64,000 nucleotides of DNA from Eledone cirrhosa. Lineage: Eukaryota. The position numbers were made by a program, and so were the translations under genes. Within the stretch, counting starts at the first letter, position 1. The number at the start of each line of letters is the position of its first letter. The DNA lies in contig OZ024753.1 of NCBI GenBank assembly GCA_964016885.1, positions 46,500,001 to 46,564,000 on the forward strand. The letters run 5' to 3'. Positions 3,425 to 21,327 of the stretch are shown here, one piece after another. The notes under the pieces were generated by a model. The model ran no database searches. It saw only the letters and a list, made by a program, of their open reading frames with translations, and had not been told where the DNA came from.

Positions 3425-4390
3425 TTCCCAAGCCGTGTCGGGGGCGGTGGTAACCACGATTTAAAAATTATTCAATACATTGGTAGAGTATAGGCATATA
3501 TATTTATGTGTGTGCGTATATATATATATATGTGTGTATATATATATATGTGTATGTATGTATATATGTATGTGTGAATATATATATATGTATGTGTGTG
3601 TGTGTGTGTGTATCTATGTATGTGTATATATATATGTGTGTGTGTGTGTGTATGCATGTGTTTATGCATATATAAATATATATATAAAGTATATATGTGT
3701 GTGTGTGTGTGTGTCTCTGTGTACATACCTGTGTGTGTGTGTGTGTGTATAAACAAGATATATAAATCATATTTATATACCTTCATTCCCATAATCCATC
3801 ATCTTCTGTTTCTTTCATTGTTTATCTTTAAAACACAATACACAAAACTATAACCGGATGTAAACAATATAGCTTGCCAACGTCAAATCAACTCTGATTG
3901 GTCCATGTACTACGACAAGCTTGGCGAAGTTGACATCATTGGGAAATACGAACTGGATATATATATTTATAGAACGATACGAACTGAATAGTTTTAGATC
4001 GATATTAAGATGCGGGAGGATAACTATTGCTGTCTCAGTTTCTCGTTGGGATTTTTGATTTAATATTATTTTTTGTTTTTTTGACGAGATTTGAGGAAAA
4101 GAAATGTTGATTTAATTAAAACAATATAGGTTAGGTTACTTGACAATGGAACGGGTAAAAAAACTATTCGTTGACGTCATAAATATTGATGGATTGTGTG
4201 CGATGTGTGTATGTGTGTGATGTGTGTGTGGTGTGTGTGTGTGGTGTGTGTGTGCGTGTGCGTGTGTAGTGTGTGTGTGTCTGATGTGTATGTGTGATGT
4301 GTGTGTGGTGTGTGTGTGATGTGTGTGTGTGTGTATATGTGTGTGTCTGATGTGTATGTGTGATGTGTGTGTGTGTGAGTGTATGTGCGA

Positions 4391-17075: not shown

Positions 17076-18149
17076 AATAGCAAAACTGACAGACAGTCTC
17101 AGACCGGAAGTGATGTGCCGATCCCGCCAGTTCTTACAATTTACCACCACCCACCCAACATCACCACCACTACCACCATTGCAACACCACCATACTCATC
17201 TCAGCACCACCACCACTTCAACACCATCGCTTCCTGACATGTTCAGCTGTAAGGAATGTAAACAGTACTGACATACAAGATTACATTACAACACACACAC
17301 AGAGACACATTCACACTTACACACACACACAGACACACACACACACACATTCAAACACATTCAAACACATTCACACACACATATTTCCATACACTTTCTC
17401 TTTCTTAGCATCAATTAGTAGCTACAACTTTAGAATTCTTCTGGAGATAGTTTTACATAACTATACATGCAACAACGAGCAATATCGACGTCACCACCAC
17501 TACCACCACTACCACCACTACCACCACCACTACCATCACCATTACCACCACCACTACCACCACTACACTACTACCACCACCACTACCACCACCACCATTA
17601 GCACCACCACTACCACCAACACTACCACCACCACTACCACCACCACTACCACCACCACAACCACCACCACAACCACCACGACTACCACCACCACCACTAC
17701 AACCACCACCACTACCACCACCACTACCACCATCACTACCACCATCACTACCACCACCATCACCACCAATATCATCATCACCATTATCACCATTATCATT
17801 ATTATACTGCCAGAGTATATCAGCTGCGGTTTTTGTCCTGCACCACAAAATCCCTAAGACAGAGACCAGTGTCTGTGGGCCAGAGCTCAAGTATACCCTC
17901 TCATCTCTCCCACGATCTATTTATCTCATTCACTCACCCCTCATTCCCTCTCACTTCTATCTATCTATCTATCTATCTATCTATGTTATTGCCTCCTCCT
18001 TATTGAGGACGCCTTTTTATGTAAACTCCCCCCATTGTACTTATCCCACTCTTTGACGCCCTGGTGGCAAATAAAAAGAAAGTTATCTATGTTATCTATC
18101 TATCTATCTATCTATCCATCTATCTGTCTATCTATTTATCTCATCTCTA

Positions 18150-18412
18150 GCTGTAGGTACTAGAGATGGTGGAGATCCTGGTCTTGGGTTCAATCCTGTT
18201 ATTTTACATCCCATAGAAAAAAAAACTGAAAAGGTTTATTGAGAACCCTACTCCCGACCAGCATCACCGCCGTCTATGACGTTTCCAACTATGCCACCGA
18301 GACAACGGCAAAGGTATAATGAAACTTAATAATTATAAACCTACTTTCAAAATCAAAGTTAAAAAGATGTGGTGTCGTTCATGGCTTTCCTAGAGCTATT
18401 AGTCGACTTGTC
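18150..18412. repeat. Partial diverged copy of 19840-20150
   Basis: Shares cccatagaaaaaaaactgaaaaggtt...gaaccctactcccgaccag...tcaaagttaaaa...catggctttcctagagctattagt. Confidence 0.85.
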
Positions 18413-18497: not shown

Positions 18498-18589
<92 letters not shown>

Positions 18590-18908
18590 GCGGACTGGCC
18601 AGGTTGCCCGATGGCAAGTGAGCCCCAGGGGATACATGGTAGCATTGCAGGAGTCCACAGTAGCATTGTAGGGCCCACTGTAGTATTTTAGCTTTCAAAA
18701 AATTCCTGAAGTCTAAGAGAAAGAATAAATTTATTTTTTAATAAAGCAATTAAGCAAAGCATTTGATCAACCAATTCCCCAGAGAATAAATAGAAACCAA
18801 AATATATGATAGTGCAAATAGCTGGAATCAGTGGTTGTACATTCTACTAAGTCTAAAGCTTAGTGTATTCATTGATGCATGCAAAAATACATATATAGAC
18901 ACACAGAA

Positions 18909-18980
<72 letters not shown>

Positions 18981-18987
<7 letters not shown>

Positions 18988-19578
18988 GAGAAAAAAGAAG
19001 AATACTGCGTGGTTGCACATAGGTTACATATGATAAAAATAGTCCTTCGTCGGTGATTTTCCAACCATCATTGGTATTTCATCACATTAAAAATCAGATA
19101 CCTCAGGTTGGTGCGAGCAATAACTAAAAAAAGTTATTGGGACCAGTAAATCGCGTAAAGCGAGGGGCACAAGTGAACAACATAGAAGGATAAAAGCAAA
19201 CCAAAGAAAGGAAATAACCAAGCAACATGGTAGTCCTGGTCAGCATAATCTGGGTGGATTTCATGAGCGAAAGGTACAGACACGTCCAGCGTGAGTGGGA
19301 TGTAAGCAAGAAGAGGCCCACTGTTAGCCAAACGGGAGGAAGTGAGAAGGAGAGAAACAGAGAGCGAATGAGTGGAAGTGCGAATAAGCGGTCAGTCGAG
19401 AGAAAGTGTAACTGACAGAGGGGGCGAAAGAAGGTGAGAGAAACAGAGAGAACGGGGAAGCAGTAAGAGAGAAACAGACAAACGCAGCCGAGGTGAATAT
19501 ATATAAAAAACATAAGAAGAAAGAAGAATACTGCGTGGTTGCACATAGGTTACATATGATAAAAATAGTCCTTCGTCG

Positions 19579-19582
<4 letters not shown>
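18981..19582 (-). mobile_element. About 600-bp (TA)n-embedded element with a roughly 65-bp terminal direct repeat (Penelope pLTR/retrozyme-like layout)
   Basis: aaagaagaatactgcgtggttgcacataggttacatatgataaaaatagtccttcgtcggtg at about 18993-19055 and 19520-19581; TA tracts on both sides. Confidence 0.75.
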
Positions 19583-19634
<52 letters not shown>

Positions 19635-19774
19635 GGGGGGGTGAAAGACCAAAGGTCATCATTGAAAGTCTCTGGATTTCGCAAAATGCATATTTTTTAT
19701 TGGAGGAAGGTAAGATATTTTCTCGCAAAAATTTGATTGCACGATTTTGTTTCCACAACAGTTTGTGTGGAAAA

Positions 19775-20083
19775 TTTTGAAAATAGGTTTATAAGTATGA
19801 ATTTTCATGAGATTTTTGTAGCTGTCTCAGTGGCCTAGCGGTAGGGACTAGAGATAGTGGCGATATTGGCCTTGGGTTCAATCCTGGTGAACATATAACA
19901 TTTTTCAGTTTTTTGTTTTACAACCCATAGAAAAAAAACTGAAAAGGTTCACTGGGAACCCTACTCCCGACCAGGATTGAACTTCAGACCCAGATCACCG
20001 CCGTCTATGATTCTTCCAACTCGGCCACCGAGACAGCTACAACAGTATAATGAAAATTGATAATTATAAACCTACTTTCAAAA
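19775..20083. repeat. Inverted pair of tRNA-like (Pol III A/B box) units
   Basis: 19775-19890 aligns with the reverse complement of 19965-20083; each arm has TGGCC.AG..G and GTTCAATCC. Confidence 0.75.
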
Positions 20084-21327
20084 TCAAAGTTAAAACCATG
20101 TGGTGTCGTTCATGGCTTTCCTAGAGCTATTAGTAATATTTAGGGTCGACTTCTGGTCGTTATTGAAAGTCTCTGGATTTCGCAAAATACATAATATTTT
20201 TTATTGGGGAAGGTAAGATATTTTTCCGCAAGAATTTGATTGCACTGTTTTGTTTCCACTTATGTATTTTTTGAAAATGTTATTTATTCATTATAAAAAT
20301 TAAATGATAGCATTCTATATGTAGGTGGGCCCCCTTCATCTCCTGGCAACCAATATTTTTAGACCCAATCCGCCACTGTCTATGACTATCTCTTTTCTAA
20401 CTATCTATCGATCGTTGTCCGAGTGTGAATTGTAATTACCACAGAATGGTTCCTCGATCTCTAAATAAATGTATTTTTTATTACTTGGTATACATGGCAA
20501 CTATGTTATTGTTTTCCTTGGTACTCAGAGTTTCATGATGAAGTCCTATCGTAACATATTAATCTACTGCGCAACATCAGTCGTCAGACTTGGCTAAAAC
20601 AATATATCGATATATCTATGATGTCTATGTAGCCATCTACCTATGTAGCTAAGCGATGACCCCCGCCACACAAACCTTCTTATAGTGTTGTCATTGTTTA
20701 ACCCCAGGTCAACCTTGATTAGGCTTAAGATGAACGACATTCCAGTCATGACTGTCATCTATGATCACAATATTTCACGTGTCCTTTCATTGATTTTATA
20801 TTTTTTCTAAAGGTCGCTTTTTTCTTTGTGTTTGTTGCTTATTTTAAATGTGCGTGCAATGTTTGTGTGCGTGTGTAGGCACGTGTGCCGTGTGCAAGCA
20901 TGTGTGCGTTTGCATGTGCGTGTGCATGCGCGTATGCATATATGTGTGTGGGGAGGATGTGTGATCAATGCTCAGAATTAAAAGATGCAATATTCACGTG
21001 GATTGTGTGCTAAAACTTCAGTTATCTTAATGAAACATCTCTTCAATGAAGACCAACATTTTCTTGTTTTTCATCTCCGTTTTTCCCCGCCACCTATTTC
21101 TTACGGTAGTTTTTCAGGCAATACATTGCATTGCCTGGGCGATTCAATTCAATACTTATGTCAGGGAAATGGGTGGGATGTGACAAATCTTTTTCAAAGC
21201 TTAACCTTTAAGTATCTTCTTAATGTTTATCTATCAGCTGTCTAAAAACGGTTTGCTACTTAATATTTTAATAATCATATTTCTAAAGAAACGGCGTGCT
21301 TAACAGTTTAACTATCATTCCTATGAA

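Follow-up and report, generated by a model that had tools for sequence, protein, structure and literature searches.

A putative type-SGC hammerhead RNA with a splinted stem II and a kink-turn in a tandem, (TA)n-targeting repeat of Eledone cirrhosa

The window analyzed here is a stretch of 64,000 nucleotides from the Eledone cirrhosa assembly GCA_964016885.1 (contig OZ024753.1, positions 46,500,001 to 46,564,000), and all coordinates below are counted from its first letter. We consider it probable that its minus strand encodes a hammerhead of block order S-G-C, carried by a 526-nt tandem, non-coding repeat in (TA)n, with a predicted cut after C19097 and with a unit-length RNA that is likely recopied by a Naiad-type Penelope reverse transcriptase.

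Structure of the permuted hammerhead RNA

Hammerheads consist of three blocks, S, C, and G, and types I to III are their circular orders (CGS, GSC, and SCG), while S-G-C is a non-circular order that cleaves at the predicted site as a monomer (Eckert et al. 2023, PMC10085705; published sources are cited here and below from the portions of their texts that were accessible). The window RNA has the circular block order of neither type I, II, nor III. It reads S (GGUAU-C-UGAUUUU), linker UAA, G (UGUGA-U-GAAA-UACC), and C (AAAAUCA-CCGACGA-A-GGAC), an S-G-C order. Its parts are listed below. Block S with its cut site was placed from the sequence and by analogy to PMC10085705.

19040 to 19145, minus strand: permuted hammerhead RNA of type SGC with a splinted stem II and a kink-turn; this copy has a rare U4C core variant
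19145 to 19140, minus strand: part a of the splint (P2a), UGGUCC, with its partner GGACUA at 19045 to 19040, 3' of the core
19139 to 19118, minus strand: P2b hairpin, inserted within the splint, the fourth arm of the stem II junction
19116 to 19112, minus strand: part c of the splint (P2c), UCGCA, with its partner UGUGA at 19086 to 19082, directly 5' of GAAA
19061 to 19111, minus strand: extended stem III, comprising the CCAACC/GGUUGG helix, the kink-turn, and GGUAU/AUACC
19111 to 19106 and 19066 to 19061, minus strand: distal helix of stem III, CCAACC with GGUUGG
19105 to 19103 and 19072 to 19067, minus strand: kink-turn, UGA opposite AAU-GA-U
19102 to 19098 and 19080 to 19073, minus strand: stem III strands, GGUAU and GAA-AUACC
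19090 to 19102, minus strand: block S (stem III strand, U16.1, C17, stem I strand)
19097, minus strand: C17, with the predicted cut between 19097 and 19096
19096 to 19090 and 19060 to 19054, minus strand: stem I strands, UGAUUUU and AAAAUCA
Between 19090 and 19086, minus strand: linker UAA, from the end of UGAUUUU to the start of UGUGA
19073 to 19086, minus strand: block G (P2c strand, U11.1, GAAA, stem III strand), with GAAA invariant in 19 of 19 aligned copies
19040 to 19060, minus strand: block C (stem I strand, CCGACGA, A10.1, P2a strand); the family core is CUGAyGA
19053 to 19047, minus strand: core segment CCGACGA
19046 and 19081, minus strand: single A (10.1) and single U (11.1), forming the hammerhead 10.1-11.1 pair

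The segments and the six helices named in the initial annotation, which had been made from the letters of the window, were all found in their places on the minus strand between 19145 and 19040. One pair had been overlooked there, A19046-U19081, the hammerhead 10.1-11.1 pair, which occurs in the 19-copy alignment as four pair types (U-A, A-U, C-G, and U-G). The proposal of a hammerhead core in permuted order was borne out, with order and core kept in 37 of 38 aligned copies, and the cut predicted between 19097 and 19096 agrees by analogy with the site of SGC hammerheads (PMC10085705). The candidate novel RNA of that annotation is not a new class, as the permutation had already been published as type SGC (PMC10085705). 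The comparison with Rfam that had been proposed was run on the window and gave no match at the gathering score within it.

The window RNA shares with the type-SGC HRIMA-1 and its variants (PMC10085705) the S-G-C order, the core letters, a linker of about 3 nt between stem I and stem II, and the predicted cut. In published SGC forms, stem II is continuous and the two flanks of block C are joined by a helix, whereas in the window RNA these flanks pair with upstream strands and stem II consists of one covarying pair followed by a splinted four-way junction; stem III is moreover extended via the kink-turn, and the RNA is present in thousands of chromosomal copies. The window RNA likely works like a type-SGC hammerhead; its differing stem II and periphery place it outside HRIMA-1 and outside types I to III as defined. 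To our knowledge, no tested hammerhead has such a split stem II. The search patterns of Eckert et al. demanded a continuous stem II and CUGAUGA, and the window form could therefore not match them (PMC10085705). In the accessible text of that study, type SGC is seen in metatranscriptomes only, and the genomes of known organisms yield no non-circular hammerhead apart from one doubtful bacterial GCS case. The literature searched, which covers few subscription papers, contains no report of permuted hammerheads in Naiads or in any animal genome; the accessible part of PMC13725137 merely cites Eckert et al.

Covariation among homologs, the test set by the initial annotation, was assessed over 38 pairs in 19 copies of families A, B, C, and E that were picked so as to be diverse. 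In this alignment, 91.8% of the cells were paired, compared with 27 to 48% for slid-partner controls, and double-sided changes were observed in 16 of the 38 pairs. The covariation score of 0.315, which is inflated by relatedness among the 19 rows, compares with 0.169 ± 0.011 in shuffles and was reached by none of 500 of them; further pair types (31, versus 33.9 in shuffles) were not above chance. Several of the rows had been chosen by a pattern that forces a mismatch beside the core. Double changes were found in 6 of 7 pairs of stem I, in 1 of 5 pairs of stem III, in 3 of 6 pairs of the distal helix CCAACC/GGUUGG, in 3 of 6 pairs of P2a (81.6% paired, family B being off by one register), and in 2 of 8 pairs of the P2b hairpin, which family D lacks. 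For P2c, a double change was sought within the alignment of families A to C and none was found. The U16.1-A15.1 pair, required by the search pattern, is kept in 53 of 53 distinct register strings, and N17 is C, A, or U in aligned relatives and never G, which is partly forced by the search patterns. The UAA linker between stem I and the stem II side is present in 103 of 103 copies. Nested folding recovered four of the helices (z = −2.36, with 7 of 200 shuffles equally good); the nested program cannot display crossing pairs, and the two crossing helices are therefore not showable by it.

The kink-turn claimed by the initial annotation was also supported. The two helices of stem III are separated by a 3-nt bulge, after which come a G.A and an A.G pair, and both pairs are intact in 100 of 103 copies that were read without forcing them. 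Among these 103 copies the bulge is AAU in 54, UAC in 42, and UAU in 7, and the 3n/3b letters are U/U in 42, U/C in 42, G/U in 18, and A/U in 1. A further 633 copies have 3n = G with 3b other than U; at least 98 of these have A at 3b, and 2 have C, among the 100 listed. Ion-induced folding is blocked by a Watson-Crick 3b.3n pair and permitted by 3n = G or 3b = C (McPhee et al., PMC4382518), and box C/D kink-turns are described as requiring L7Ae. Here 3b.3n is almost never Watson-Crick and in all major subfamilies is U.U, C.U, U.G, or A.G. Since the subfamilies differ within the permitted set, this supports a working kink-turn, in an argument that rests on few independent changes. Box C/D and Kt-7-type kink-turns (PMC4382518, PMC5689011) share with it the 3-nt bulge, the tandem G.A/A.G pairs, L3 = U in most subfamilies, and the 3b.3n letters U.U of family A and A.G of family F; the difference is its location in stem III of a putative ribozyme. 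A literature search for the combination of hammerhead, kink-turn, and retrotransposon gave one unrelated review. Three tandem G.A-type pairs (3b.3n = A.G) were observed in the kink-turn of subfamily F (L315 to L319), the units of which measure 515 to 680 nt.

The tandem host element and its copies

The RNA lies within a short insertion, the parts of which are as follows.

18972 to 19581, minus strand: the entire insertion, 5'-truncated, with 1.16 copies of a non-coding, pyrimidine-rich unit of 526 nt
19497 to 19581, minus strand: partial first unit, from a remnant of block C (which also has CCGACGA) through the internal UA tract
19494 to 19512, minus strand: internal U/UA tract of the unit, where most genomic copies end; the presumed start of reverse transcription
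18911 to 18981: (TA)n target array adjoining the insertion at its 3' end
19582 to 19615: (TA)n target array adjoining the insertion at its 5' end

Positions 18971 to 19055 and 19497 to 19581 form a direct repeat of 85 nt, 96% alike and 526 apart. The terminal direct repeat of the initial annotation thus exists and is TA-embedded; it is the overlap within a 1.16-unit tandem of a 526-nt unit and not an LTR. The suggestion of a retrozyme-like host element was confirmed by non-coding tandem units, one ribozyme per unit, and dispersed copies. An LTR element was ruled out by the tandem overlap, a coding unit by the lack of any sizeable conserved ORF in the units, and a rod-like, viroid-type circle by the weak folding of the unit (38% paired). 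By the marks in its sequence, the window element is probably a Penelope-type retrozyme, non-coding, tandem, and (TA)n-targeting. Animal non-LTR retrozymes (PMC7229834; Li et al. 2026, 10.64898/2026.07.22.740005) likewise have non-coding tandem units with one hammerhead each and a Penelope-like link, but their hammerhead is of type I and their length about 170 to 400 nt, whereas the window family has type SGC and 515 to 680 nt. Animal retrozymes form circles (Cervera and de la Pena 2020, PMC7229834), and the accessible part of Li et al. (10.64898/2026.07.22.740005) contains type I hammerheads only.

A search with a 121-nt stretch gave 1,520 candidates in the 3.0-Gb genome of the animal itself, and the best 40 scored were 98 to 100% alike. 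The ribozyme-bearing repeat is a large, young family. Subfamily B gave 1,522 candidates, the pattern for subfamily C had 38 matches (control 0), and subfamilies E and F were found in addition. Family D is old and has differing stem sequences (79 matches, control 0), and it keeps the block order and the kink-turn pattern in a majority profile built from 21 fixed-register copies among 30 loci. Unit length is 521 to 527 nt in family A, 619 to 626 nt in family B, and 515 to 680 nt over the families, and copies of the young families are 90 to 99% alike. Family D (L091 to L120) was observed to be tandem as well, with a unit of roughly 400 nt, copies about 80% alike, CUGAGGA, and a splint that has no hairpin.

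The core of the window copy is unusual within its family. The exact G+C stretch with CUGAyGA occurs in 4,595 copies in the genome (control 0), and 49 copies have another letter in place of U4 (36 C, 8 A, and 5 G; control 0). Likewise, of the 38 copies aligned, which come from 30 loci, 37 have CUGAnGA, and the window copy with its CCGACGA is the sole exception. The CCGACGA core is therefore present as the initial annotation had it and is not the family norm, which is CUGAyGA; natural intact copies thus need no restoring of CCGACGA. U4C was found in both blocks C of three insertions, namely, the window insertion (19052 and 19578), L280 (G000:C1:333622028 and 333622554), and L283, and its presence in both units of one insertion implies that the variant was already in the template. 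Two other U4C loci, L285 and L286, extend into a further unit, where no second CCGA was listed. The U4C loci have no haplotype in common with the window copy. Contigs from three runs of one sample span the stretch and contain only family variants, and a search for RNA runs with this sequence listed none. With its U4C, the window copy would probably cut more slowly than the others; U4C keeps some activity in hammerheads, and CCGA has been described in a viroid hammerhead.

The anatomy of the insertions was examined in 30 family A and 30 family B loci, selected for a whole ribozyme (two B loci are one insertion). More than one unit is present at 15 of the A and 14 of the B loci. While the 5' ends are scattered, the 3' ends fall at the internal UA tract, at unit positions 125 to 129 in 28 of 30 A loci and 108 to 124 in 29 of 30 B loci, and the three remaining loci end at a second UA site near position 72. 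A crude test detected TA on the 3' side of 24 of 30 loci in each family and on the 5' side of 22 of 30 A and 13 of 30 B loci. An inverted, 5'-truncated copy lies beside the insertion at 8 of 30 B loci and at 0 of 30 A loci. Shorter copies were examined at 21 places from the best 100 of 2,122 matches. Among the matches listed, 2 of 21 begin at the cut site and 1 of 21 two bases before it, and most begin at UA microhomologies. These starts indicate that the template spans the cut site, which a circle and an uncut multimer fit equally. Rare variants, compared with respect to a circle or a tandem master, were shared by both units in 10 cases in A and 2 in B and confined to a single unit in 81 and 41, respectively, which is not decisive.

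Relation to Naiad elements

Naiads, a large clade of animal retrotransposons, are (TA)n-biased and 5'-truncated and occur as partial tandems and inverted copies (Craig et al. 2021, PMC8557442). In the accessible text they are described as having no canonical hammerhead, and some are labelled 'HHR_core' or 'HHR_half_core', the latter label being given to eight that include Naiad_Ovul and Naiad_Esco; cephalopod Naiads are described as remnants. The window family shares with Naiads (PMC8557442) the (TA)n target, the 5' truncation, the partial tandems, and, in family B, inverted 5' copies, and by eye the same RNA design was recognized at the 3' ends of entries from octopus, squid, coral, and others. 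It differs from them in that the window element has no ORF.

The Naiad supplement (PMC8557442) was covered as passages around four search words, and its counts therefore give no fraction of entries. By eye, Naiad_Ovul and the preceding entry have the splint, the hairpin loop, the kink-turn, and S-G-C at their 3' ends, about 70 nt before TA, and the hairpin loop of the Naiad_Ovul type is also present in family C. S-G-C was recognized by eye in three entries that end before Naiad_Aacu, Naiad_Anas, and Naiad-1_Movir, in entries near parts 12 and 9, and in the entry before Naiad_Adux. Among named relatives, octopus Naiads come closest, both for the RNA and for the decayed reverse transcriptases of this genome. 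C-S-G with a continuous stem II was observed separately at Naiad 3' ends, in the entries that precede Naiad-2_Nbra, Naiad-3_Nbra, and Naiad_Hcon and in others near parts 13, 15, and 16 (PMC8557442). The metagenomic Naiad L202 likewise has a type-CSG hammerhead, with its cut site near 3530; just two CSG examples, both metagenomic, appear in the accessible text of Eckert et al. (PMC10085705).

In a scripted test, a 229-aa piece of a decayed copy retrieved 1,391 relatives. The 30 aligned, out of 150 listed, have CxC and DKA, and an N-terminal GIY-YIG was found in 4 of 5 scanned. A descriptor that covers all six block orders was applied to 80 metagenomic Naiad loci, 43 of which have at least 600 nt of 3' flank. 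It found a permuted hammerhead in the sense 3' flank of 12 loci (11 SGC and 1 CSG) and no match at the other 68, and the controls gave 1 antisense match (CGS), 0 in ORFs, 0 in reversed sequences, and 0 in five shuffles of 76 loci. A run with a wider descriptor added a twelfth SGC, together with weak control matches (3 in antisense 3' flanks, 1 in an antisense 5' flank, 6 in ORFs in sense, and 6 in ORFs in antisense). These weak matches, which occur in every control set, and two weak canonical-order matches in sense 3' flanks were treated as background. The antisense flanks of L229 and L230 hold the same CGS-order match, which has no stem II and is probably a shared repeat or chance.

All 12 metagenomic SGC RNAs have 0 or 1 direct stem II pairs. 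The strand before GAAA has an upstream partner, the counterpart of P2c, with six Watson-Crick pairs of differing sequence in 11 of them and four in one, and the strand after the core also has an upstream partner, with 4 to 7 pairs. Bulges or loops stand where the octopod RNA has its kink-turn. Five of the 12 are 70 to 84% alike and two are 73% alike, which reduces them to about seven independent families; the window RNA is about 50% alike to each of these, a background level. RNAs of the window type likely account for two gaps at once, the lack of a canonical hammerhead in Naiads and the lack of a known host or role for permuted hammerheads.

Naiad queries, with the best candidates scored, found no intact Naiad ORF in this genome, only decayed copies, in agreement with the description of cephalopod Naiads as remnants (PMC8557442). 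There were 115 Naiad protein matches, and the longest stop-free stretch around the motif was 233 aa. The FDFSTLYT-type pattern gave 3 matches, all of them Naiad-like remnants, versus 3 in the control, and the WxPKLHK-type pattern gave 13 versus 3, none within a long ORF. DNA and protein searches for an autonomous partner returned decayed copies only, and a word-indexed protein search with an 85-aa piece returned nothing. The 3' flanks of 15 decayed Naiads contained no recognizable ribozyme, apart from one weak and probably chance match, and no 3' end common to the family and an autonomous element was found within this genome. The mobilizing element may belong to another Penelope-like clade. 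Pieces of Penelope-type reverse transcriptase or GIY-YIG-like pieces of other clades were seen by eye, in translations, near the insertions L070, L076, L077, L086, L091, L099, and L101 and are candidate partners. For a Poseidon element, a Penelope-like element, cDNA synthesis begins within the RNA and AT-rich DNA is nicked (Frangieh et al. 2024, PMC11167929), in keeping with the fixed internal 3' ends described above.

Proposed cycle and alternative readings

In the fold that we propose, the pairings are backed by covariation and the three-dimensional shape is inferred. Stems I and III would be ordinary, while stem II would consist of one pair and then a four-way junction, where the upstream splint would bind two strands, one that follows CUGAnGA and one that precedes GAAA. 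The 3-nt linker would tie the far end of stem I to the splint helix, likely replacing the contact between loop I and loop II, and the kink-turn would fold back stem III, the far end of which joins stem I with no spacer. A transcript of tandem copies would be cut once per unit, and the monomer would probably be circularized by a host ligase, as in other animal retrozymes. The partner protein would nick (TA)n, and the cDNA would begin roughly 120 nt past the cut, within the UA tract, and run through the cut site, going more than once round in about half of the copies examined. A cDNA cycle of this kind would leave the 3' ends fixed and the 5' ends variable and would produce partial tandems.

The same fold could instead serve mainly as a binding or initiation platform for the Penelope protein, its cutting being slow, assisted, or dispensable and uncut tandem transcripts being the template, which we regard as unlikely. 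The hammerhead of the anole element PAc cuts only with its protein, its mutants leave insertion in vitro intact, and uncut RNA is the main template in vitro (PMC11167929). That the window insertion, L280, and L283 each carry U4C in the two blocks C shows that a core variant was copied, and the starts of the short copies are not clustered at the cut site (2 to 3 of 21 among the matches listed). However, the letters of the catalytic core are all kept in families A to F, D included, and in about seven unrelated Naiad families with flanks only about 50% alike, N17 is never G in the aligned sets (in part through the patterns used), and U4 variants number 49 versus 4,595, all of which argues against this reading.

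It is less probable still that the active form spans two units, as a dimer or as a long-range S-C-G arrangement with block G supplied by the next repeat, which would give a conventional topology, and that the local pseudoknot is a resting fold. The linker of 1 to 5 nt, the distal helix of stem III, and the splint all join neighbors within about 110 nt, and they covary or recur; SGC monomers cleave (PMC10085705), and the next copy of autonomous Naiads is kilobases away. These points outweigh the frequent tandem arrangement of the elements and the dimeric action of vertebrate retrozyme hammerheads (PMC7229834). Least probable by far, and close to refuted, is the reading that the complementarity arose by chance in an AT-rich repeat and was multiplied by copying, or that it is an artefact of the assembly. 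The modest nested fold, matched by 7 of 200 shuffles, and the inflation of covariation by kinship among copies would suit chance, but double changes occur in six of seven helices, the pattern controls gave 0, and the same design recurs in unrelated Naiads, while an artefact is at odds with contigs of three runs of one sample that span the stretch.

If the RNAs of the preferred reading, a self-cleaving S-G-C hammerhead, do cleave, permuted hammerheads would be abundant in animal genomes, Naiads would be no exception among Penelope-like elements, and one class of retrozymes would be invisible to standard descriptors. Craig et al. argued from the absence of hammerheads in Naiads about the role of hammerheads in Penelope-like elements (PMC8557442), and the non-circular hammerheads of Eckert et al. 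have no known role in the accessible text (PMC10085705). The split stem II and the kink-turn would be new builds of the hammerhead core, available in thousands of natural variants. More tentatively, the octopod form may be a natural kink-turn-controlled ribozyme, and the Naiad clade may, throughout animals, have non-circularly permuted hammerheads as its standard ribozymes, namely, CSG and the SGC form whose four-way stem II is splinted, a reading that we consider possible and on balance doubtful. The U.U subfamilies would then cut only with 15.5K/L7Ae bound, whereas Mg alone would suffice for the subfamilies with 3n = G or 3b = C; a host protein would thus act as a switch on the processing of retrotransposon RNA.

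Other repeats were observed around the insertion. An 11-nt inverted repeat pair with a AGTGGCGGA core, at 18585 to 18596 and 20367 to 20378 of the window, flanks about 1.8 kb that include the element, and this segment is possibly an older DNA transposon that hosts the insertion. Another repeat is present in two copies, 76% alike, at 18147 to 18403 and 19835 to 20134. The latter copy has inverted arms of 115 nt (19774 to 19888 and 19970 to 20084) and lies between direct repeats at 19654 to 19756 and 20155 to 20259.
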